A stretch of 32,000 bases of DNA from Bdellovibrionales bacterium (lineage in GTDB: Bacteria; Bdellovibrionota; Bdellovibrionia; Bdellovibrionales; UBA1609), in NCBI GenBank assembly GCA_963692945.1, contig OY843585.1:120001-152000 (forward strand), read 5' to 3'. The translations under genes were made by a program, and so were the position numbers. Each line of letters opens with the position of its first letter. Position 1 is the stretch's first letter. The notes under the pieces are model-generated. The model was not told the DNA's origin. It did no database searches and saw only the letters and a program-made list of their open reading frames with translations. Of this stretch, positions 1,892 through 20,321 are shown piece after piece.

Positions 1892-2650
1892 ATGAATTCA
1901 AAAATGAAACCATCTCAAACTATACGTCTTAATAAATATCTTGCTCAATGGGGAGGTGTTTCCAGAAGAAAAGCAGATCATTGTATTGAAAAAGGTGAGG
2001 TTTTCATCAATGGAAATAAAGTAAAAAGTTTAGGCACTCTTATTGATCCCGAAAAAGATCAAATACGAATAAAAAATCGTATTATCCATAAACAAAATTT
2101 CTCACCAATTTATATTATGTTCAATAAACCTGAAAATGTATTAACTACAACCACTGATCCAAAAAATCGCACAACCGTTATGGATTTTATAAAAAAATAC
2201 AAACAGCGTATTTTTCCGGTTGGAAGATTAGACTGGAAATCCGAGGGCTTACTTCTCTTAACCAATGACGGAGATTTCGCACAAAAGATTCTACATCCTA
2301 AAAGTAAAATACCTAAAACCTATTTGGTAAAAATTCAAGGAAATCCCACTCCAGCTCATTTAAGAAAACTTGTAACGGGGGTCAGCACTCCTCTAGGAAA
2401 AATGAGAGCTCTTCATGCAGAAAAAGTTTTAAAAACAAGACAAAGTAATCAATGGATTAAAGTCATTATCTCTGAAGGAAAAAACCGACAAATCAGACAT
2501 ATGTTTGATAAATTGGGATACCGAATCGTAAAATTAAGGAGAGTCTCTATAGGAAGATTAAAATTAAACAAGTTGAAAAAAGGGACTTATGTATTCTTAA
2601 AAAAAACAGATGCTGAAAAAGCCTTTCTAACTTTAAAAGAACTCTATTAG
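1892..2650 (+). CDS. rluB: Pseudouridine synthase, RsuA/RluB family (N-terminal S4 domain)
   Basis: S4-like RLNKYLAQWGGVSRRKAD, catalytic PVGRLDWKSEGLLLLTNDG motif, KNRQIRHMF motif. Confidence 0.85.
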   Translation: MNSKMKPSQTIRLNKYLAQWGGVSRRKADHCIEKGEVFINGNKVKSLGTLIDPEKDQIRIKNRIIHKQNFSPIYIMFNKPENVLTTTTDPKNRTTVMDFIKKYKQRIFPVGRLDWKSEGLLLLTNDGDFAQKILHPKSKIPKTYLVKIQGNPTPAHLRKLVTGVSTPLGKMRALHAEKVLKTRQSNQWIKVIISEGKNRQIRHMFDKLGYRIVKLRRVSIGRLKLNKLKKGTYVFLKKTDAEKAFLTLKELY

Positions 2651-3111
2651 TTTGATTTGGCTCGCTTTTTTTTCATGGCTCTTTCTATTTGTCTGTCTGC
2701 TGTTTTCTTTTTTAAAGTGGCTCTCTTATCTCTATGTGATTTCCCAACCCCCAAAGCAATCTCTACTTTTGCTTTTCCTTTTTTAAAATAAATTCTTAAT
2801 GGAATGCAAGCCATTTTCTTTTGTTGAATCAAGCCTCTTATTTTCTCTATTTCTTTTTTATGGAGTAAAAGTTTCCTCAGTCTTTCTGGCTCATGCCCAC
2901 CTTGCAAAGAGCCTTCATAGGGACTAATGTGAGCTTTTTGCAAAAAAGCTTCATCACCAACAAAAGCAACATAGGCATCCTTTAAATGACACCGACCGTC
3001 CCTTAAAGGCTTAAGTTCACTTCCTTGAAGCACGATTCCTGCTTCAAACTTCTCTTTCAATTCATAGAGAAATCTTGCTTTTTTATTAAAAACAACTTCT
3101 TTAACCGACAT
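2647..3111 (-). CDS. smpB: SsrA-binding protein SmpB
   Basis: 154 aa. NKKARFLYEL, GIVLQGSELK and LLLHKKEI motifs, basic C-terminal tail. 4-nt convergent overlap with rluB. Confidence 0.93.
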   Translation of the reverse strand: MSVKEVVFNKKARFLYELKEKFEAGIVLQGSELKPLRDGRCHLKDAYVAFVGDEAFLQKAHISPYEGSLQGGHEPERLRKLLLHKKEIEKIRGLIQQKKMACIPLRIYFKKGKAKVEIALGVGKSHRDKRATLKKKTADRQIERAMKKKRAKSN

Positions 3112-3152
3112 ACTTTAAAAATAAAACGAGTCTCTTTTAAGAGCAAGATTCT

Positions 3153-3370
3153 TTTACAAAACTCTAATGTTACTCTACTTATTTTCTGACCTTTCATCGT
3201 AAGAGGGACACTCTTCAAGTTCAGAAAACAAGGAGGGGTATTCTTAGAGAAAAACTGATGTTTTTCGCATATTAGTTTAGGAGTTTTCATCGTAAAAGGG
3301 GACACTCTTCAAATCTCGTTAAAATAAGAGTTATGTAACAGTCTTATGTTTGAACTAGAGTTTTTGAAAA
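3153..3370 (+). repeat. Composite copy (two cores) of a nested-inverted-repeat element
   Basis: Left TIR TTTACAAAACTCTAATGTTA (3153-3172), right TIR TGAACTAGAGTTTTTGAAAA (3351-3370). Two conserved cores at 3192-3219 and 3284-3313. 3306-3331 is identical (26/26) to 7826-7851. Confidence 0.8.
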
Positions 3371-3954
3371 GCTTTGGGTTTAAAACCCTGCCTATTAACA
3401 ATACTGGAACTGCTTCCTGTCGCTCTTATCACAAACAAACCCTCTTTCTCAGCTCTTCTGTCAGAAGATTGGTTGGCTTTTAAATACGCAACGGCTCCAT
3501 AAACTTTTTTACCTTTAAATTCTGGCATAAAATCCGTAACTCTATTTAATTTCTTAATGAAATAATTCAACTCTTTAATATACAAAGTTGTTTTCACTTC
3601 TACAACAACGAGCTCCTCCCCGTTGAGAGCCAAAATATCAAATTCAAATTGTTGTTCCCCATGTTTTTTCACTATATTTGTTGCAGTCCGATCAACTTTG
3701 ATACCTTTTTGTTTTAGAAGTTTCACTAAATCTCCTTCAACTAAAGTTTCCATCAACTTACCCCAGTGACCATTGAATTTTAGATCCGTCTCTCTTATTT
3801 GTTTGGCAGTTGCTTTTAGGCTAGCTCGGAGCTCTTTAATATCTTCTGCTGCTTTTTTATCGCGCTCTTCTTGTGCTTTTTTTTGCTCTTTAAAAAGTTG
3901 CCAGATTTCTGCAAAATAAGATTTAGCTTCTAAAACAGTAGATTTATTACTCAT
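3355..3954 (-). CDS. Coiled-coil + PD-(D/E)XK nuclease-fold protein (DUF3782-like), function unknown
   Basis: 199 aa. N-terminal Lys/Glu-rich helix, then HWGK...E104-F-D106-IL...VVV-E119-V-K121, matching the D...(D/E)xK restriction-endonuclease-like motif and the layout I recall for DUF3782 proteins. AGGAGA Shine-Dalgarno (SD) site 5 nt upstream of the ATG at 3954. The stop codon lies inside the repeat TIR. Confidence 0.75.
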   Translation of the reverse strand: MSNKSTVLEAKSYFAEIWQLFKEQKKAQEERDKKAAEDIKELRASLKATAKQIRETDLKFNGHWGKLMETLVEGDLVKLLKQKGIKVDRTATNIVKKHGEQQFEFDILALNGEELVVVEVKTTLYIKELNYFIKKLNRVTDFMPEFKGKKVYGAVAYLKANQSSDRRAEKEGLFVIRATGSSSSIVNRQGFKPKAFQKL

Positions 3955-4025
3955 TATTTCTCCTTTTTTTAGTTTACCATAAGTTATATGCGAAAACCAT
4001 GCCCATTTTATAAAGAAATATTAAA

Positions 4026-4170
4026 AACAAAACTCTCGTTCATTTAACAAAACTCTAGTTCATTTCTAATACTCTTTTCTTTTTAGGAGATTTTCGTCGT
4101 AGGAGAGATACTCCTCAAACACCTAAAAAGAAAAGAGTTCTTACTTATAGTGAACTAGAGTTTTGTAAAA
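4026..4170 (+). repeat. Nested-inverted-repeat element (archetype copy) with a tandemly duplicated left end
   Basis: Tandem 20-mers AACAAAACTCT(C/A)GTTCATTT at 4026-4045 and 4046-4065. TIR 4043-4062 versus 4151-4170. Perfect 17-bp inner stem 4071-4087 / 4122-4138. Core 4091-4120 with hairpin AGGAG-AGATA-CTCCT (4101-4115). Confidence 0.85.
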
Positions 4171-4180
4171 GCGTCTCTCA

Positions 4181-4342
4181 TGTGGAGGGCTTGTAGATTT
4201 TATTTTTTATCTATTTATGAAAGAAGAAGATATTATTAACTTAGCTAAAGCAAAAAAGCCCTCTGTGGAGGGCTTGTGGATTCTATTTTTTAATTTGATC
4301 TATTTATAAAATGGGAATCAATTATTTATAAAATGGGAATCA
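4181..4342 (+). repeat. Duplicated ~40-bp module plus tandem 20-mer
   Basis: TGTGGAGGGCTTGT(A/G)GATT(T/C)TATTTTTTA...TCTATTTAT occurs at 4181-4218 and 4264-4307. TATTTATAAAATGGGAATCA occurs at 4301-4320 and 4323-4342 (22-bp period). Confidence 0.75.
4251..4275 (-). terminator. Rho-independent terminator for the 4340..5293 gene
   Basis: On the minus strand, AAGCCCTC-CACA-GAGGGCTT followed by TTTTG: 8-bp GC-rich stem, 4-nt loop, T-run. About 65 nt downstream of the stop at 4340. Confidence 0.7.
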
Positions 4343-5293
4343 CCAGCTAGAGTCTGAAAACAATTCAGCTGTTCTTTTCATCACAGCATCTCTCTTCTTT
4401 TTGATTTCCACTAATGCATTCCAATAACTTTCACAAAACTTCCCTTCTAACTTTATAAAATCTTTACAAATCTTTGCTTTGTGAGCTCTCTCATTGTCTA
4501 AATCTCTAACCTCTGCTACAAAGTTTTTCATATTATTACACATCTCTATATATATATCATACAACCCCTTATTCCAATATGGGTTAGAGTTTTGACTACA
4601 ATGGGTAGAGACCTCTTCTAATATATTTAAACTATAAATAGCACCTTGATAATGTCTAATAACAGGAAGCAAAGGAACACCAGTCCCCATACCCTCTTTA
4701 TAACCCGGTGAAGAGCGTTCTAATTGAGCATGATGATCTACAACTTGCAAAAAATACCTGTCAAAATACCCTGATGATATCAAATAAAAAGAAGCCAGTT
4801 CAAATAAATGGTCTTTTTCTAAAAGAGCATAAAGAACTGTAGAACCATCGGTTGAAGTAGCATTAGGATAGTTAGGGATGGATTTAATAAGATCTATAAC
4901 TTCTTTATAAGAGGCTATAGCTGAATCTATGATTTCACTATACCTCACTGTGTCTTCAATATCTCTAAAAGTCCCGTCGGTTGTTATATACCTAGCCATC
5001 ATATAAGCGGGGTAAACCCCTTTTTGATCTTTCCCTTTTATTAAATACTTAAAGGCTTCGTCTTTTTTGCCCCTTAATAACAAACATTTGGCTTTCATAA
5101 CTAAGAGGAGGTGATCTTTAGGTTGATCTTGTAGCTGTCTATCTACATCATTTTCATCTTCACAATCTATTATTAAAGATACACTAGAAAAACCAAAGAT
5201 TAAAAAAAACAGCAAGAAAAGAGTTTTAAAAAAATTCATACTAAAAGTTTTTTTAAAACCTTCCCGATAAACATCCTTGTCCCATAAAACCAT
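4340..5293 (-). CDS. Hypothetical signal-anchored or secreted protein, no recognisable family
   Basis: 317 aa. AAGGAGGT SD 3 nt upstream of the ATG at 5293. Hydrophobic segment FFKTLFLLFFLIFGFSSVSLII after an 18-aa N-terminus. Followed by a terminator. Confidence 0.7.
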   Translation of the reverse strand: MVLWDKDVYREGFKKTFSMNFFKTLFLLFFLIFGFSSVSLIIDCEDENDVDRQLQDQPKDHLLLVMKAKCLLLRGKKDEAFKYLIKGKDQKGVYPAYMMARYITTDGTFRDIEDTVRYSEIIDSAIASYKEVIDLIKSIPNYPNATSTDGSTVLYALLEKDHLFELASFYLISSGYFDRYFLQVVDHHAQLERSSPGYKEGMGTGVPLLPVIRHYQGAIYSLNILEEVSTHCSQNSNPYWNKGLYDIYIEMCNNMKNFVAEVRDLDNERAHKAKICKDFIKLEGKFCESYWNALVEIKKKRDAVMKRTAELFSDSSW

Positions 5294-5604
5294 ATAACCT
5301 CCTTGTATAAGTGTCTCAAAATGAGACTCATTTATATTAAATGATTTTCAAAAAAACACAATGAAAAGCTTCTTCATAAAGGAACTTTCTTTAATTTTAC
5401 AAAAGCAAGTGTTTAAAAACTGAACGGTTTTTGTTCTTTTTCCTTTTTAAAAGGATAAAAATCACTTTTTAAATGAGATTTAAATCCCATTCAATAAAAT
5501 TTAAAAAATCCATTCCAGATAAATTGAAATAAATAATTTATAAATAGAAATATAATAAATTTTTTAACTCCTTTTCCTATTTTTGACGATATAATAATAG
5601 GGCT

Positions 5605-6636
5605 ATGTATTTACAAAAAATTTTAAAGATCTTTGTATTTCTCATGATAAGTCCTTTACCTATAAGTTCAACAGCAAACTGTAATGATCGCAATATATGT
5701 AGACCAGAGACTCCAGCTTCAAGGAAGGGTCAAACGGGGCAGAAAAAGAATGTACCACTTGGTGGTGATAGTCATGATGGTAATCAAAATATAGTTGGAA
5801 CTGACTTTTCTGTAGATCATTATCGCATGGGCCGCTACAATCCACATAAAAAGACAGCCTCACAAACTAATATTATTCCTAATGTTGATGGTAATAATCT
5901 TAAAAAAAAATCTAAGATAGAGCAGATGTTATCCTTTCTTGATAAAGGTACTAGTTATAATCATCATTACGAAGTCTTAGGATATAAAAAATTTATTAAT
6001 ACATACTGTAACGGTTTTACGGAAAATTTAAATGAGATAAAAAAGAATCTAGATTATGAATACAGAGATGGTGAAGGACAAGCAGAAGGTATAGCTACAA
6101 ATCAATTAAAAGAGCTAATAATTGCTTGTAAAGATAAATTGAGCAAATTTGATTCTGGTATAGAAACAATCGAATCAGATCATAAAAAATATGAATCTAT
6201 TAAAGAATTAAATGATCGATGGAAAGAAATAAAAAAATTAAAAAATCAATGCCAAAACAGTTATAATCTGAACAAATCACTACTTAAAAATCGTGAAGAA
6301 GATACATTTAACCATTTTGAAACAGAGATACGCATACGTTTTGAAAATTGTGACATGAATGAATATATAGAAATTTATAAAGAAAAAATCAAAAAACTTA
6401 AAAAGCAAGAAGAAGCCAGATGTAACACCGACATCAACGAACCGGAGGGTTGTATAAAAGAACTCAATGATTTTCTCAAGCCTCTTAAGGGAGAAGGCGA
6501 CACTCTTTTATACAAATGCGGTCACTATCCTGAAACAAAAAAATCTTGTTGCAGTAATCTTGATCAAGAAGACTGTGAACATAAAAAATTTTTTAATACT
6601 TACTTAAAAAAATATAAAAAATCCTCATCAATGTAA
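5605..6636 (+). CDS. Cys-rich secreted protein, N-terminal part (frame 1), ends just after a poly-A frameshift site
   Basis: Signal-peptide-like MYLQKILKIFVFLMISPLPISSTA. Many spaced Cys residues and Lys/Glu-rich helices. Stop at 6634-6636 lies just after the A7 (6606-6612) and A6 (6616-6621) runs. Confidence 0.65.
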   Translation: MYLQKILKIFVFLMISPLPISSTANCNDRNICRPETPASRKGQTGQKKNVPLGGDSHDGNQNIVGTDFSVDHYRMGRYNPHKKTASQTNIIPNVDGNNLKKKSKIEQMLSFLDKGTSYNHHYEVLGYKKFINTYCNGFTENLNEIKKNLDYEYRDGEGQAEGIATNQLKELIIACKDKLSKFDSGIETIESDHKKYESIKELNDRWKEIKKLKNQCQNSYNLNKSLLKNREEDTFNHFETEIRIRFENCDMNEYIEIYKEKIKKLKKQEEARCNTDINEPEGCIKELNDFLKPLKGEGDTLLYKCGHYPETKKSCCSNLDQEDCEHKKFFNTYLKKYKKSSSM

Positions 6637-7768
6637 AAGTAAAGAGCTTTTAGAAAGTAACATATATAATAAAAGAATAGATATCTGTGAAGCTAATGTA
6701 AAACAATGTCATAACACTTGTAATACTGCTCTAGAACAATTCCGTGACAAATTTAAAAGGTGTTTTTATGTTTCCAGTTTTAAAGATGCCGTTAATGAAA
6801 ACTCTAAATGTGAGAAGCACATTGTGAACATCTCTATAAAGTATAAAGAGATTCTAACACAAATTAAAGATAGATTTTTTGATAGCAGTTCTACTAAAAA
6901 ATTGTATGAACCATCAACGGATGAATATTTATTAATTACAAAAGGAGCTTCAATAGATCATTTTCCAAATTGCGAAACAATAATAAACAAAACCATAGAA
7001 AACAACGAGGATAAAATAAAAGCAAGAGCCAAGTTTTATGCAGAACAAGCTTGTTTGGCTAAAAACTCTAAAGACCCTAATAAACCATCGTCAACAGCAA
7101 GTTTAGCAGGTGGTAGCTCAGGTAACAGCCAAGAGGACTCTTCTTCGTATAATGGGTTACCCCCCCCCAATTCTCAACCCCCTTCTTATTCTCAAGGAGG
7201 AACTGGATATAATGTAAGAACGACTTCTAACCCATCAGGAAGTTCTCCATCATCAAGAAATCCTTACAAATCCAATGGCGACCCATACGATTTAGAAAAA
7301 TTCCTTAAAGAAAGAAACAAAATGGCCAAAGACGACGAAACCCCTGATGGTCTTGAAGACACCGACAAAAAAACAAAAGACTTAGTGCCTGGGATAAATG
7401 ATGATAACAAGTTGACGGAAACAGATGAAGAATCAAAAAACAATCTTGCCAGTTCAGCCCTTCAGAAATCTACATCAGAAACACCCTCCGAAACAATGAG
7501 CACATGGCAAACTGTGAAAACAAGATTTTTTGGCTCAAGTTCAAAATCCAAAAAAACAAGTCGTGGTTCTTATTTACCAAAAGGTTTTGGGAAACGAAAC
7601 CTAGCTTCCAATCAAAAACCAGTGACACTAACTCAAACCTATCGTTCTAGAGATTCAGGAACAAAATCACCTATTGGTAGTGCCAATCAAAATATTTTTG
7701 AAATGGTTTCCAACTCCATGAATCATTTCTGTGTTACAAAAATCAAAAACTGTTACACCAGCTTTTAA
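6608..7768 (+). CDS. Continuation of the Cys-rich protein in frame 2 (no credible independent start); Ser/Pro/Gly-rich disordered middle
   Basis: Frame 2 is open from 6608. It has no ATG and only a GTG at 6824 without an SD. The Cys-rich pattern continues (HQCKSK, DICEANVKQCHNTCN, KRCF, SKCEKH). Removing one A in either run fuses 5605..7768 into 720 codons. Confidence 0.6.
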   Translation, partial: KNIKNPHQCKSKELLESNIYNKRIDICEANVKQCHNTCNTALEQFRDKFKRCFYVSSFKDAVNENSKCEKHIVNISIKYKEILTQIKDRFFDSSSTKKLYEPSTDEYLLITKGASIDHFPNCETIINKTIENNEDKIKARAKFYAEQACLAKNSKDPNKPSSTASLAGGSSGNSQEDSSSYNGLPPPNSQPPSYSQGGTGYNVRTTSNPSGSSPSSRNPYKSNGDPYDLEKFLKERNKMAKDDETPDGLEDTDKKTKDLVPGINDDNKLTETDEESKNNLASSALQKSTSETPSETMSTWQTVKTRFFGSSSKSKKTSRGSYLPKGFGKRNLASNQKPVTLTQTYRSRDSGTKSPIGSANQNIFEMVSNSMNHFCVTKIKNCYTSF

Positions 7769-7889
7769 CAAAACTCTAGTGTGTGAATTTTTATTTTCAC
7801 GAGCTTTTCATCGCAAGAGAGACGTTCTTCAAATCTCGTTAAAATAAGAGTAAGAAAATATCTAAGTAACTGAACTAGAGTTTTTTTAA
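7764..7889 (+). repeat. Nested-inverted-repeat element between convergent genes
   Basis: TIRs TTTAACAAAACTCTAGTGTG (7764-7783) and TGAACTAGAGTTTTTTTAA (7871-7889). Inner stem 7791-7803 / 7835-7847 (one mismatch). Core 7805-7833. Confidence 0.85.
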
Positions 7890-8678
7890 CTTTTCAAACT
7901 TTTGGTAAAGAGATAAAAACTGATTAGAAGAAAGTTCCTCAGCTCTTGTATTAAAACTCCAATTTTTATCTGTAAAAAATCTTTCCCACTCTATCAGAAA
8001 ATCTTTAGGAAGCTGTTTAATTAATTTTTTTCTTCTTTGAGCAAAACAAGATTTAATAAATTGTAAAAAACTCTTTTTATCCACAATAGAAACCAATTTC
8101 TTAGGTTTAAAACTTAACACCACCCCGTCCACTTCAGGAACAGGATAAAAATTATTTTTACCAACATGGATCATCCATTCTATATCCCAAAAAATTTGAG
8201 ACAAAACAGAAAGAAGTCCATAACTTTTTGTATGAGTTTTAGCTAAAATACGCTCGGACACTTCTTTTTGAACCATTAAGATCATCTGTGCTGGAGATTC
8301 TTTAAGAAGACTCATTTCTAAAATAAGAGAACCTGCAATTTGATAAGGTAAATTACCAAATAAAGTAAAGGGGGATGGGATTTGATTCCAATTGAATTTT
8401 AAAGCATCACTACAAAAAACAGAAAAACCTTTTTCCTTCCAATAAGAATCTAATTTTTGATCTCTTTCAATAAGAAAAATCTGATCTTTCTCAGAGTTAA
8501 AAAAATGTGTTAAAGCACCTAGACCAGGACCCACCTCCACCCAAGGAGGAGAACTGCTTTTCACCTTGTTCACTATCTTCAAAACTATCTCTTCATTTAT
8601 TAAAAAATTTTGTCCTAATTTTTTATTAGGTTTTATATCTAATTCTTTCAATTTGATTTTTAATTTTTGTAAATTCAT
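7875..8678 (-). CDS. rsmA: 16S rRNA (adenine1518/1519-N6)-dimethyltransferase
   Basis: KKLGQNFL motif, SAM-binding VEVGPGLGALT, NLPYQI motif. 267 aa. Confidence 0.92.
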   Translation of the reverse strand: MNLQKLKIKLKELDIKPNKKLGQNFLINEEIVLKIVNKVKSSSPPWVEVGPGLGALTHFFNSEKDQIFLIERDQKLDSYWKEKGFSVFCSDALKFNWNQIPSPFTLFGNLPYQIAGSLILEMSLLKESPAQMILMVQKEVSERILAKTHTKSYGLLSVLSQIFWDIEWMIHVGKNNFYPVPEVDGVVLSFKPKKLVSIVDKKSFLQFIKSCFAQRRKKLIKQLPKDFLIEWERFFTDKNWSFNTRAEELSSNQFLSLYQKFEKLKKL

Positions 8679-9749: not shown

Positions 9750-10478
9750 TTATTGTTTTTTTAATCTTTGTTTAGCTTTTTCAACCCAAGAAGATGTAGG
9801 GTAGGTTTTTATAATTTCTTTATAAAAAACTTGAGACTCTGGTAACATTTTTAAATACCTAAAAGATTCTCCCATATAATAAGTAGCCTCTATAATATAG
9901 ATTCCTTTAGGATTTTTATTCCGATAATCTTGAAACTTAGTGATAGCACTTTGCCAAGACTTTTCAGAGTACAATTTTTTAGCCTCAATAAAGGATTGAG
10001 AAGATGTATCCTTTTTTTGAGAACCTTCTTTATCTGACTTGTTCTGGATTTTTTCTTCTAACTTTATATCTTTCACAGGTTTTTCTTGGGAATCTTGATT
10101 TTTTAAAACAGTTTCTGGATCCTCATCACTAAAGTGGATGGCATCATCAGATATTTCTTCTGTCAAAATTTGCACTTTAGAATTCACTTTATCCCTATTG
10201 ACTGAAGATTTATTAGCAATAAGACGATCTATTTTCTTTTCTAAATTAGAAATCTTAACTCGTAAGACCTTATAACTTTCAACAACATTTTGCATCTTTT
10301 CTGAAATAAAAGCGAAATCATCCTTATCTAAATTAGCAACACTTCTTAAAGTATCCACAATGTCTTGCTTAGAAGAATAGCGATTCTTTTTTATAACACT
10401 ATCATAATGAGAAGTTTTTTTAGTTGTAGAGCAATTAACACAAAAAAAGAAAATCATTAAAAAAGTAAATCTTTTCAT
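9750..10478 (-). CDS. YbgF/CpoB-like protein (signal peptide, coiled coil, C-terminal TPR-like domain)
   Basis: N-terminal hydrophobic signal with Cys, central coiled coil and acidic linker. The C-terminal ~80 aa (AKKLYSEKSWQSAITKFQDY...YYMGESF...KTYPTSSWVEKAKQRL) resembles the YbgF TPR domain. Lies downstream of pal. Confidence 0.55.
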   Translation of the reverse strand: MKRFTFLMIFFFCVNCSTTKKTSHYDSVIKKNRYSSKQDIVDTLRSVANLDKDDFAFISEKMQNVVESYKVLRVKISNLEKKIDRLIANKSSVNRDKVNSKVQILTEEISDDAIHFSDEDPETVLKNQDSQEKPVKDIKLEEKIQNKSDKEGSQKKDTSSQSFIEAKKLYSEKSWQSAITKFQDYRNKNPKGIYIIEATYYMGESFRYLKMLPESQVFYKEIIKTYPTSSWVEKAKQRLKKQ

Positions 10479-10535
10479 AACTTTTTACTCCAGTTAAGAG
10501 ATTACCATAAAAACCTATCCGAGTTAATGTTTCTG

Positions 10536-10844
10536 TCACAAACTGTAGTCTCCCTTTTTATATCTAGTCCATCTCGTTAAATCTTCCGATTTTTCGGCCA
10601 TTTCTAGACATTGATTAAAATAATCCTTAGCCTGTCCATACAACCTTTTATCAAAAGAATGACTACCTTTTCTATAGAAATAAACCGCTTTTCTATACAA
10701 TTTAGGGTTGTATTTATTAGCTTCAAATTTTTTAGCCGCCTGAAGAGCTGTACGAGCTAAACTGTATTCCTTAACAGGCGGAGTTCCTGCACAAGAAATC
10801 AAAAATAACATCCAAAATAAAGTACTTATATAATACTTAATCAT
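10536..10844 (-). CDS. Small lipoprotein (DUF4398-like helical protein)
   Basis: Lipobox LISC-AG. 102 aa. Its start overlaps the pal stop by 1 nt (TAATG), suggesting an operon. Confidence 0.6.
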   Translation of the reverse strand: MIKYYISTLFWMLFLISCAGTPPVKEYSLARTALQAAKKFEANKYNPKLYRKAVYFYRKGSHSFDKRLYGQAKDYFNQCLEMAEKSEDLTRWTRYKKGDYSL

Positions 10845-16493: not shown

Positions 16494-17201
16494 TTACTTT
16501 TTCTTCTCTTTAGCAGCCTTCTTTTTAGCTGCTTTCTCTTTAGCAGCCTTTTCTTTAGCTGCCTTCTTTTTAGCTGCCTCGGCTTTTTTCTGAGCAGCCT
16601 TTCTTTCTTTCCGTCGTTCTTTTAAAATCTTCTTTGCTATATGAGATGGGGATGCTGTTTGCCCACGACCCTCATTGAGACGAAGATGATTTATAAGTTT
16701 TTCACTAAGTTTTATTTTAGATGTTTTAATATCTAAGAAAATAACATCTGCTTCTGGTTTTAGAACTCCTCTAGCATGAGATATGGAGTTTTCTACAATG
16801 TAAAGAGCATTCGCTTGAAAAAGAGGAGATTTTTTTTTGTTCTTTAAAACAGGAAGGGCTTCTTTCACCACTTCTGCCAATACATCTATAAAAGGCTTAT
16901 AGGTGTTAATTTCTGTTTCCAAAGGAGAGAGTAAAGAGCTTCGCAGACCATCTGTATCAGGTCTCATAAATAAAATTTTAAGACCAACCTTTAACTTGGA
17001 AAGAGCCTCATCTGGGTCAATAGCATCACTTTCTTTGTTTTCAGATTGATTTGAAGTCGTTTTCTGTGTTTTTTGGATGTAAGAATTTACAATTTTTCGC
17101 ATTTGCTCATAATCTTTAATTTTTAGATTTTCATAAGTGTAGTTGCCCCATGAGACAGAACATAAAAACACAAAAAATAAGACCAAAAAATTCTTCAACA
17201 T
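16494..17201 (-). CDS. Secreted protein with Lys/Ala-rich repetitive C-terminal tail
   Basis: Signal peptide MLKNFLVLFFVFLCSVSWG. Tail KKAEAAKKKAAKEKAAKEKAAKKKAAKEKKK is encoded by imperfect 15-nt tandem repeats (about 16500-16600). Confidence 0.65.
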   Translation of the reverse strand: MLKNFLVLFFVFLCSVSWGNYTYENLKIKDYEQMRKIVNSYIQKTQKTTSNQSENKESDAIDPDEALSKLKVGLKILFMRPDTDGLRSSLLSPLETEINTYKPFIDVLAEVVKEALPVLKNKKKSPLFQANALYIVENSISHARGVLKPEADVIFLDIKTSKIKLSEKLINHLRLNEGRGQTASPSHIAKKILKERRKERKAAQKKAEAAKKKAAKEKAAKEKAAKKKAAKEKKK

Positions 17202-19114: not shown

Positions 19115-20321
19115 AAATATTAAACTTCCTGACCTTGGTGAAGGTGTTACAGAAGGGGAAATTATAAAGATCAAAGTTTCTCCAGGAGATACAGTATCTA
19201 TGGACCAAGTTCTTTTGGAAGTTATGACAGATAAGGCTTCTATGGAAATTCCTTCTTCCATAAATGGCAAAGTTACAGAAGTTAAAGTCAAAGAAGGAGA
19301 TATGGTTGCTGTAGGGCAAGTTGTCTTAACTATGGAAACTAAAGAAACAAGAAAGGATACCATAAAACAAGAAGAAATGAACTCTTCTAAAAAACAAAAA
19401 AAAATGGAACAAGAACTTCCTAAAACATCCAACACAATCACTCAAAAAGATTATGACCTTGCTGTTCCTGCCACGAGAAAACTAGCTGAAGAATTTGGTG
19501 TTTCGTTAAAAGATATTCCTAAAAGAAATAACAAAGTTACAAGAGAAGACCTTATTAGGCATGTTAAATCTTCTTCCAAGTCTCATTTTCAACCCCTAAC
19601 TCCCTTAAAAGTAGAAGGCGAAGAAATAAAAAGAGAAACTCTTACGGGAATTAAAAGGATTATGTTTGAAACCATGACTCTTTCTAAGGCTACAATTCCT
19701 CATTTTACTATAACCGAAACAGCCAATGTGAAACATCTTGTGAATGTTCGGACAAAATTAAAAGAGCAATTAAAATCTCAAAATATAAAATTAACCTACC
19801 TACCTTTTTTTATAAAAGCCATTTTATCGGGTTTTAAAGAGTTCCCTATTTTTAATAGTAGTTACGATGAACAAAATAAAGAAGTGGTCTATAAAAAATC
19901 AGCCCATATAGGTTTTGCCGTAGATACAAATCAAGGACTCATTGTCCCTGTTATAAAAGAAGCCGAAAAGAAAAGTGTTTTAGACCTAACTAAAGAGATC
20001 CAAAACCTTGGAGAACAAGCACGAAAAGGGACTGTCCAAAGAGAAAATTTAACAGGGGGTTCTATTACACTAACCAACATTGGTAGCCTTGCTGGTCTTT
20101 CAGGAACACCTATTATCAACCCTCCTGAAGTTGCTATTTTAGGAATCTATCGTATGTATCAACAAATTGTAAAAACAGACTCTTCTGGTTTTGAAGAAAA
20201 TCCTTTTATAAATTTCTCTATCACTTGCGACCACCGTTTAATAGATGGTGCTACAGCGGCTCGGTTTTTAAAGAACTTTATTTCTAGAGTAGAAGAACCT
20301 AGCCTACTTATCTTAGATTGA
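19104..20321 (+). CDS. 2-oxoacid dehydrogenase E2 component (dihydrolipoamide acyltransferase)
   Basis: N-terminal lipoyl domain (EVMTDKASMEIPS), peripheral-subunit-binding domain (VPATRKLAEEFGV), catalytic CDHRLIDGA. 11-nt overlap with lipA. Confidence 0.9.
   Translation: MEIENIKLPDLGEGVTEGEIIKIKVSPGDTVSMDQVLLEVMTDKASMEIPSSINGKVTEVKVKEGDMVAVGQVVLTMETKETRKDTIKQEEMNSSKKQKKMEQELPKTSNTITQKDYDLAVPATRKLAEEFGVSLKDIPKRNNKVTREDLIRHVKSSSKSHFQPLTPLKVEGEEIKRETLTGIKRIMFETMTLSKATIPHFTITETANVKHLVNVRTKLKEQLKSQNIKLTYLPFFIKAILSGFKEFPIFNSSYDEQNKEVVYKKSAHIGFAVDTNQGLIVPVIKEAEKKSVLDLTKEIQNLGEQARKGTVQRENLTGGSITLTNIGSLAGLSGTPIINPPEVAILGIYRMYQQIVKTDSSGFEENPFINFSITCDHRLIDGATAARFLKNFISRVEEPSLLILD

Follow-up and report, generated by a model that had tools for sequence, protein, structure and literature searches.

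A previously undescribed hairpin-shaped repeat marks the borders and internal joints of a gene island between smpB and ksgA in a Bdellovibrionales bacterium

Introduction

What is the palindromic element that recurs between the housekeeping genes smpB and ksgA of a Bdellovibrionales bacterium, and how is it related to the genes that it separates? The question was raised by an earlier note on a 32,000-nt stretch of this genome (assembly GCA_963692945.1, contig OY843585.1, positions 120,001 to 152,000; hereafter the window), in which three loci, 3153-3370, 4026-4170 and 7764-7889, had been described as copies of one nested inverted repeat. Our analysis shows that they are real copies of a previously undescribed hairpin-shaped repeat, which marks the borders and the internal joints of an island of 4.7 kb. 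To the reading that the repeats are a new, lineage-restricted, non-coding palindromic DNA repeat of 100-128 bp, similar to the miniature inverted-repeat transposable elements (MITEs), we give an even chance.

Results

Copies, ends and core of the repeat

A profile search with nhmmer identified four copies of the repeat in the window (A1, A2, B and C) and a solo end, B0 (Table 1). All three loci of the earlier note are present at the positions given there and have the common architecture it described, but they are not three single copies, since the locus 3153-3370 is a tandem of A1 and A2. Copies are 100-128 bp long, and intact ones consist of 20-bp terminal inverted repeats, an inner stem and a central asymmetric core, whose length is 27-28 nt instead of the approximately 29 nt proposed at first. 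No open reading frame (ORF) lies within any copy, and both ends contain stop codons.

The 16-mer representing the ends, ACAAAACTCTAGTTCA, occurs six times in the window with at most three mismatches, compared with 0.85 expected occurrences; none of 100 shuffled sequences reaches six, and all six matches are inside the three loci. The 28-nt core consensus based on A1 has two matches in the window against 0.00 expected, and a degenerate core pattern has three against 0.00 expected, the latter count being descriptive only as the pattern was fitted to the copies. The cores of all four copies are on the + strand, as the earlier note had claimed for its three loci; with a chance probability of 1/8 this common orientation is not significant.

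Conservation is higher in the ends and the core than in the arms: all three right ends contain the identical 14-mer TGAACTAGAGTTTT, and the cores are 81-85% identical between copies versus 68-74% for the whole elements. Within the ends, the outermost 6 nt differ among copies and the inner 14 nt are invariant; AAAACTCTAGTTCA is found unchanged in the three right ends and in the left end of B. At left ends, TTAC or TAAC precedes AAAACTC. The core consensus, TTTC-R-TCG-Y-A-RGAG-RGAYR-YTCY-TCAA, holds a 5-bp hairpin.

Pairing and folding of the arms

The earlier note had proposed that the inner stems differ in sequence between copies and remain paired within each of them, and had taken this pattern to imply selection on, or templated repair of, a hairpin of ~125 nt. 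We assessed pairing by a cross-copy arm-pairing matrix and by shuffling, with 2000 shuffles per copy. The single stems proved to be described accurately: in B the segment 4071-4087 is perfectly complementary to 4122-4138; in C the segments 7791-7803 and 7835-7847 are paired at 12 of 13 positions; and in A1 TTTTCTGA pairs with TCAGAAAA (3221-3228), its left arm being at 3182-3189, one base off the position first assigned. Inner-arm pairing as good as that observed arose in a fraction of 0.006 of the shuffles for A1 and in none for B and C. The arms of A2, by which the claim is contradicted, are unpaired (0.63 of the shuffles as good, z +0.4), so the case for selection or templated repair rests on the three paired copies out of four.

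The 5' arms of A1 and B each pair best with their own 3' arm, and for the 5' arm of C, its own 3' arm and that of A2 are about equally good partners, because these two 3' arms are nearly identical. The proposed difference in sequence applies to a part of the stems only. All copies are homologous in the outer part of the inner stem (ACTCT..TTTT / AAAA..AGAGT), and the difference, which is compensated, is confined to the 4-8 bp adjoining the core: TAGG/CCTA in B, CTGA/TCAG in A1 and CACGAG/CTCGTT in C. In this differing segment copy-specific pairing is clear in A1 and modest in B and C.

Copy B has a predicted folding energy of -49.7 kcal/mol as RNA (z -8.4) and of -31.0 kcal/mol as DNA (z -7.9), equal on both strands. 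As whole elements, A1 and C fold only modestly better than their shuffles; taken alone, A1 folds into the nested hairpin. In the core hairpin one pair is compensatory, being A-T in A1 and G-C in B, and C has a single G.T. The pairing of ACTCT with GGGGT in A1 needs two G.U wobbles, which work on the + strand only, and in the hairpin of A2 a single mismatch is of the opposite kind. As an argument for strand-specific pairing, and thereby for RNA, these observations are too thin to be used.

Taken over all copies, the arms are conserved mainly as pairing, and the ends and the core are conserved in sequence. The constraint on the sequence of ends and core suggests that proteins recognise the ends and the centre of a DNA element that is capable of forming a hairpin or a cruciform.

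Exchange between copies

Copy A2 is mosaic in structure, with a proximal left arm similar to that of B (TTTAGGAG), a core similar to that of A1 and a right arm similar to that of C. The right arms of A2 and C are 94% identical over 31 nt, forming a direct repeat (3301-3331 versus 7821-7851). The mosaic structure of A2 and the right half that it has in common with C therefore indicate that the copies exchange sequence, while the tandem junctions A1/A2 and B0/B indicate that copies accumulate at each other's ends.

The island between smpB and ksgA

The window is chromosomal, has a GC content of about 32% and carries the gene order ileS, lspA, rluD, smpB, then ksgA and tsaD. In three relatives, L009, L010 and L020, whose TsaD proteins are 84%, 82% and 76% identical to that of the window, respectively, ksgA is followed directly by smpB, with a spacer of 74-134 bp; therefore, this lineage has gained the 4.7 kb found here. 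The empty sites of the relatives are in the genomes ERZ26695812 (contig_3), GCA_029782575.1 and GCA_051011135.1. On the ksgA side, homology with the relatives stops where the outer edge of C is reached, and on the smpB side it is found again 3 nt outside the outer edge of A1. From the smpB side, the island reads A1 and A2, a gene for a PD-(D/E)XK nuclease, B0 and B, three orphan genes, and C, so that A2 and B0/B flank the nuclease gene. Three genes, namely the nuclease gene, the 314-aa ORF and ksgA, take their stop codons from repeat ends, as is typical where small repeats have inserted at the ends of genes.

The 3' end of the native ksgA gene in L009 (GTTACAAAAAG, L009 11860-11890) resembles the outer repeat end (TTTTACAAAAC, window 7875-7905). 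The insertion point at ksgA may have been a target similar to the element's own end, or the resemblance may be due to chance in AT-rich DNA.

Table 1. Features of the island and of the genes bordering it (positions in the window).
Feature	Position	Strand	Description
Whole insertion	3152-7889		4.7 kb between smpB and ksgA
smpB	2647-3111	-	
Copy A1	3152-~3250	+	nhmmer E 4.9e-19; core 3192-3218; left end TTTTACAAAACTCTAATGTT; degenerate right end CTTAGAG; inner stem ACTCT.CTT.TTTTCTGA / TCAGAAAA.AAG.GGGGT; smpB-side island border
Copy A2	~3251-3372	+	nhmmer E 5.7e-20; core 3285-3312; mosaic or decayed; degenerate left end AAAAACTGATG; intact right end TGAACTAGAGTTTTTGAAAA, which supplies the nuclease gene stop
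TAG stop of nuclease gene	3355-3357		in right end of A2
PD-(D/E)XK nuclease gene	3355-3954	-	199 aa; Pfam Hjc (E 3e-8) and DUF8196
Solo left end B0	4023-4042	+	AAAAACAAAACTCTCGTTCA, one mismatch to the 16-mer; abuts B
Copy B	4043-4170	+	nhmmer E 3.4e-27; core 4092-4118; best preserved; 20-bp ends with one mismatch; perfect 17-bp inner stem; core hairpin AGGAG-AGATA-CTCCT
ORF, 317 aa	4340-5293	-	island cargo, no recognised family
ORF, 343 aa	5605-6636	+	island cargo, no recognised family
ORF, 314 aa	6824-7768	+	island cargo, no recognised family
TAA stop of 314-aa ORF	7766-7768		in left end of C
Copy C	7764-7889	+	nhmmer E 5.1e-29; core 7806-7832; ksgA-side island border
TAG stop of ksgA	7875-7877		in right end of C
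ksgA	7875-8678	-	

No transposase, integrase or other recombinase was found in the 32 kb of the window. The three cargo ORFs have no match in Pfam or PHROG, and their NCBIfam and PADLOC matches, at E-values of 0.004-0.08 only, are unconvincing; the 314-aa protein has no homolog besides itself among 5.8 billion proteins. The 343-aa ORF has a signal-peptide-like N-terminus, is Cys-rich and contains internal DNA repeats of ~50 nt (5958-6007 and 6555-6604). The products of the 314-aa and 343-aa ORFs look like secreted or surface orphan proteins.

Several other repeats and one other insertion were observed in the window. Between B and the 317-aa ORF (4171-4345) there are two direct repeats of ~55 nt, at ~4178-4237 and 4262-4326 (GTGGAGGGCTTGTrGATTyTATTTTTTA..ATCTATTTAT), the second of which carries a terminator-like GC hairpin, AAGCCCTCCACAGAGGGCTT (4256-4275), and at ~4300-4345 TTATTTATAAAATGGGAATCA is duplicated in tandem. 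A putative aminopeptidase gene (PF10023; 12003-13082) between rpsI and a 178-aa ORF has no counterpart at this position in L009, L010 and L020; it is a second insertion specific to the lineage, and no repeat ends lie close to it. An ORF on the - strand (16494-17201), to which no Pfam family matched, includes repeats at 16503-16586 (CTTCTCTTTAGCAGC-like) that are in frame, have a period of 15 nt and would encode a repetitive stretch rich in Lys, Ala and Glu.

The nuclease gene and its paralogs

BLASTP identified four paralogs of the nuclease, the window gene being one of them, which are 77-100% identical and lie on the same contig of 1,561,448 bp. All four end with F-[Q/T]-K-L followed by the stop codon, and in the window gene the last three codons and the stop lie in the repeat end. 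The tail of the window gene is coded by TTT CAA AAA CTC TAG, and the variant with T fits the canonical end, TTT ACA AAA CTC TAG. Such an F[QT]KL-stop tail is present in none of the 42 homologs examined from other genomes, whose C-termini read ..KPKxF[S/C/N] before the stop, or KPKxF plus 0-2 residues in low-GC homologs. From the tails of all four paralogs we infer at least three further repeat copies or ends elsewhere in the genome, which would in every case join the nuclease gene at the same codon.

All 46 aligned homologs have the catalytic residues D106, E119 and K121. The predicted structure of the nuclease (pLDDT 83.5) consists of a long N-terminal helix and a generic PD-(D/E)XK domain; the closest folds are the nuclease domains of NucS/EndoMS, AF1548 and Can2/Card1. 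A role as a junction (cruciform) resolvase is without specific support, Hjc being only 48th by predicted fold.

The nuclease family has more than 2,000 homologs, often in multiple or tandem copies, and the family (DUF8196/PD-(D/E)XK) may consist of selfish or defence-related genes in their own right. At the nuclease loci L018 and L019 there is no nested hairpin at the 3' end of the nuclease gene; L019 contains four tandem nuclease paralogs with conserved upstream modules of ~230 nt (2086-5993). A third locus, L008, from a more distant genome with a GC content of 45%, contains two nuclease copies (2738-3388 and 10001-10672) sharing ~290 bp upstream, as well as nested inverted-repeat elements of its own at 16551-16670 and 19447-19707. 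These elements have perfect outer arms of 31-32 nt and a common inner palindrome (TTTCCTGCGAAGCGGCC / GGGCGATTCGCAGGAAA) and lie in opposite orientations; L008 also holds several inverted repeats of the TAGTCGTTCCTGAAAAAG type. None of the inverted repeats of L008 is related in sequence to the family in the window. A link between nuclease and hairpin as a general rule was rejected, since L018 and L019 lack the hairpin and the inverted repeats of L008 are unrelated.

Searches for relatives of the repeat

Searches for further copies with nhmmer covered the rest of the window and ~97 kb of related loci, namely 63 kb of the three syntenic relatives and roughly 34 kb of other loci; no further copy was found, the best other match being not better than E=0.07. 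At gathering thresholds, the Rfam search that the earlier note had called for gave no match in the window. At permissive E-values only microRNA (miRNA) precursor hairpins were reported; they matched both strands, and their scores of 17-31 bits were below the thresholds of 60-200. BLASTN gave no match in 72,556 plasmids and only chance matches of 24-30 nt in 50,697 phage records.

Pattern scans were made in larger collections. In a collection that holds one genome for each prokaryotic species, the core pattern had two matches, both of which were in coding sequence and lacked repeat ends; the paired-ends and core patterns had only chance matches, in phage genes, in viral contigs. In the JGI metagenomes the paired-ends pattern had no match, and a loosened core pattern had seven matches in metagenomes, all in DNA of higher GC content without repeat ends. 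The end 14-mer did not occur in the literature searched.

Discussion

The repeats as putative MITE-like elements

The earlier note had called the repeats MITE-like and had assigned them to no named family, and this is still the best reading: the elements are shorter than ~500 bp, non-coding and present in several copies, and their terminal inverted repeats are conserved between copies. If so, an enzyme whose gene lies at another place in the genome would have spread the repeat in trans, along with the nuclease gene fused to it. Once several copies were present, they would recombine with one another and would then serve as portable homology, by which foreign modules could be joined in direct orientation. 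Joining of modules at repeats would yield the observed array of repeat, nuclease, repeat, orphan genes and repeat between housekeeping genes. The starting points of this scheme, that is, the architecture, the conservation pattern, the insertion relative to the three relatives, the fusion with stop codons and the mosaic copy, are observed directly, while trans-mobilisation and recombination as the route by which the array was built are inferred. As they lie at gene 3' ends and form a long hairpin with a T-run behind it on either strand, the elements probably also terminate transcription.

Several observations weigh against the MITE-like reading. No target-site duplication is evident, and there is no direct repeat beyond the 20-bp ends. 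At five of six intact ends TA lies just outside (A)CAAAAC, which is uninformative as TA is common at 32% GC. An autonomous partner carrying these ends was not observed. Outside the island, neither the other 27 kb of the window nor the ~97 kb of related loci yielded a copy, so that in the DNA searched the family is not highly dispersed, unlike classic MITEs; the scans of genome, viral and metagenome collections gave only chance matches. All four copies have one orientation, which simple random transposition does not predict, though with p=1/8. Finally, ~60-110 bp of ancestral intergenic DNA are absent at the site, which means that the island did not arise by one clean insertion.

Correia/NEMIS of Neisseria, ERIC/IRU of enterobacteria (~127 bp) and RUP of Streptococcus are bacterial MITEs or long palindromic intergenic repeats. 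Like them, the repeats in the window are non-coding elements of 100-150 bp with terminal inverted repeats that form one long hairpin; they lie at gene ends or between genes and can supply stops or terminators, recombine between copies and flank variable gene islets. Unlike them, they have few apparent copies, in one island only and in a single orientation, have no clear target duplication and contain a strongly conserved asymmetric core between arms that differ by copy. They show no sequence similarity to the records and families searched. Among the named families Correia (with ends such as TATAGTGGATTAACAAAAA), ERIC, RPE, RUP and REP/BIME, none is known to have the ends of the window repeat.

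Other small elements are similar in part. PeSL (early promoter plus stem-loop) elements flank mobile ORF cassettes in T4-type phages, and in Neisseria "minimal mobile elements" are found between conserved genes. The window repeats share with both that short structured intergenic repeats in one orientation bound modules of orphan genes, and, by the scheme proposed above, that recombination between repeats shuffles modules or inserts them between conserved genes; they differ from PeSL in being located in a bacterial chromosome, in having no conserved promoter and in having full terminal inverted repeats. In mobile insertion cassettes and MITE-flanked composites, passenger genes are enclosed by two small IS-derived repeats and moved in trans. 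Similarly, a passenger gene, that of the nuclease, is bracketed here by two copies of a small repeat with no transposase, in a unit of which the genome would contain four; its mobilisation, however, is putative, and no cognate IS is known. The IS200/IS605-derived PATE and the REP/RAYT repeats have subterminal hairpins in place of terminal inverted repeats, a fixed target of 4-5 nt at the left end and a Y1 HUH transposase (TnpA or RAYT) in the genome. The full terminal inverted repeats of the window elements argue against membership in these groups, and there is no HUH gene in the window.

Other explanations of the repeats

An explanation that we consider unlikely is that the repeats are recombination sites of a cassette array, similar to integron attC sites and to the Vibrio cholerae repeats of chromosomal cassette arrays (VCR, ~123 bp), with modules inserted site-specifically at the folded palindrome. 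It would explain the direct orientation, the position of a repeat at every joint and the chimeric copy A2, and it agrees with an array of the form repeat-cargo-repeat-cargo-repeat in one orientation at a single housekeeping locus. VCR, too, are imperfect palindromes of ~125 bp in direct orientation at the joints of an array of mostly orphan genes, with structure kept better than arm sequence, and the variable outermost 6 nt next to 14 invariant ones in the ends would also fit. On the - strand the ends of B and C read GTTAAAT and GTTAAAA, near GTTRRRY, but RYYYAAC and GTTRRRY are not both present in any copy on either strand: on the + strand the left end of B (ATTTAAC) fits RYYYAAC with GTAAAAG as its partner, and at the right ends the sequence is GTTTTTT in C and GTTTTTG in A2. 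The repeats thus lack the inverse core sites of attC. They also lack its extrahelical bases, as the end stem of B (16 bp in the predicted fold) and its 17-bp inner stem are continuous Watson-Crick helices, with no unpaired central spacer, and, besides the ends, their most conserved block is central, whereas the centres of mobile attC sites are variable. Moreover, an integrase is missing from the window, the array, unlike VCR arrays, has only two or three "cassettes", one of which is 3.6 kb long with cargo genes on both strands, and ordinary homologous exchange between copies that are 68-74% identical could produce the mosaic as well.

The fusion of all four nuclease paralogs to a repeat end at the same codon leads to another explanation, to which we assign a small probability: the repeats would be part of a mobile module carrying the nuclease, which would cut the hairpin or cruciform, or an end-like target, and spread in the style of a homing endonuclease. 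In agreement with it, the catalytic residues are invariant, the repeats are seen only in the island that carries the nuclease, the syntenic regions of L009, L010 and L020 have neither nuclease nor repeats, none of the best 120 nuclease matches is on contigs of these three relatives, and the 3' end of ksgA in L009 is similar to the outer repeat end. The gene is located, however, between copies and not between the inverted ends of one copy, and C is 3.8 kb away from it; elsewhere, as at L018 and L019, the family is multi-copy or tandem with no nested 3' hairpin, and the fold is that of a generic NucS/Can2-type PD-(D/E)XK nuclease, with Hjc far down the ranking. More doubtful still is a combination in which the repeats and the four-copy nuclease form a new selfish module, the nuclease recognising the folded repeat or an end-like target and driving insertion of modules at copies, which would build integron-like arrays with no integrase. 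That the elements are structured RNA, either a small RNA gene or a stabiliser or terminator in 3' untranslated regions, with pairing kept by selection on the RNA, also appears improbable. The stems that differ and remain paired in three of four copies, the compensatory pair and the G.T in the core hairpin, the two + strand wobbles of A1 and the position, at gene 3' ends, of a long hairpin with a T-run behind it on either strand could all be read in this way, but A2 is unpaired and has a hairpin mismatch of the opposite kind, and every gene next to A1, A2 and B is on the - strand, on which the three G.U pairs turn into A.C mismatches. B pairs equally on both strands and with DNA parameters, as a DNA palindrome would. 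In addition, no Rfam family matches beyond the sub-threshold miRNA hairpins on both strands, and there is no conserved promoter: the sole promoter-like site, in B (9/12), is of a kind whose frequency in the region is not above that in shuffles.

Several candidates were ruled out. A retron non-coding RNA would need a reverse transcriptase, of which there is none; att sites of one integrated element do not agree with border copies that are only ~70% identical; and there is no resemblance to a dif/Xer site. A small ORF in the elements was dismissed because the ORF at 3057-3305 overlaps smpB and B has no start codon, and a conserved internal promoter because it is present only in B and is weak.

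Significance of the repeats

As a new MITE-like family, the repeats would be mainly an addition to the catalogue. The locus provides a concrete case, in a poorly studied lineage of Bdellovibrionota with small genomes, of palindromic repeats that bound gained genes and rewrite the 3' ends of genes, and it allows a comparison of a filled site with empty ones. If the link to the nuclease proved to be functional, the finding would have greater weight, as it would point to a system that builds cassettes with no known recombinase.

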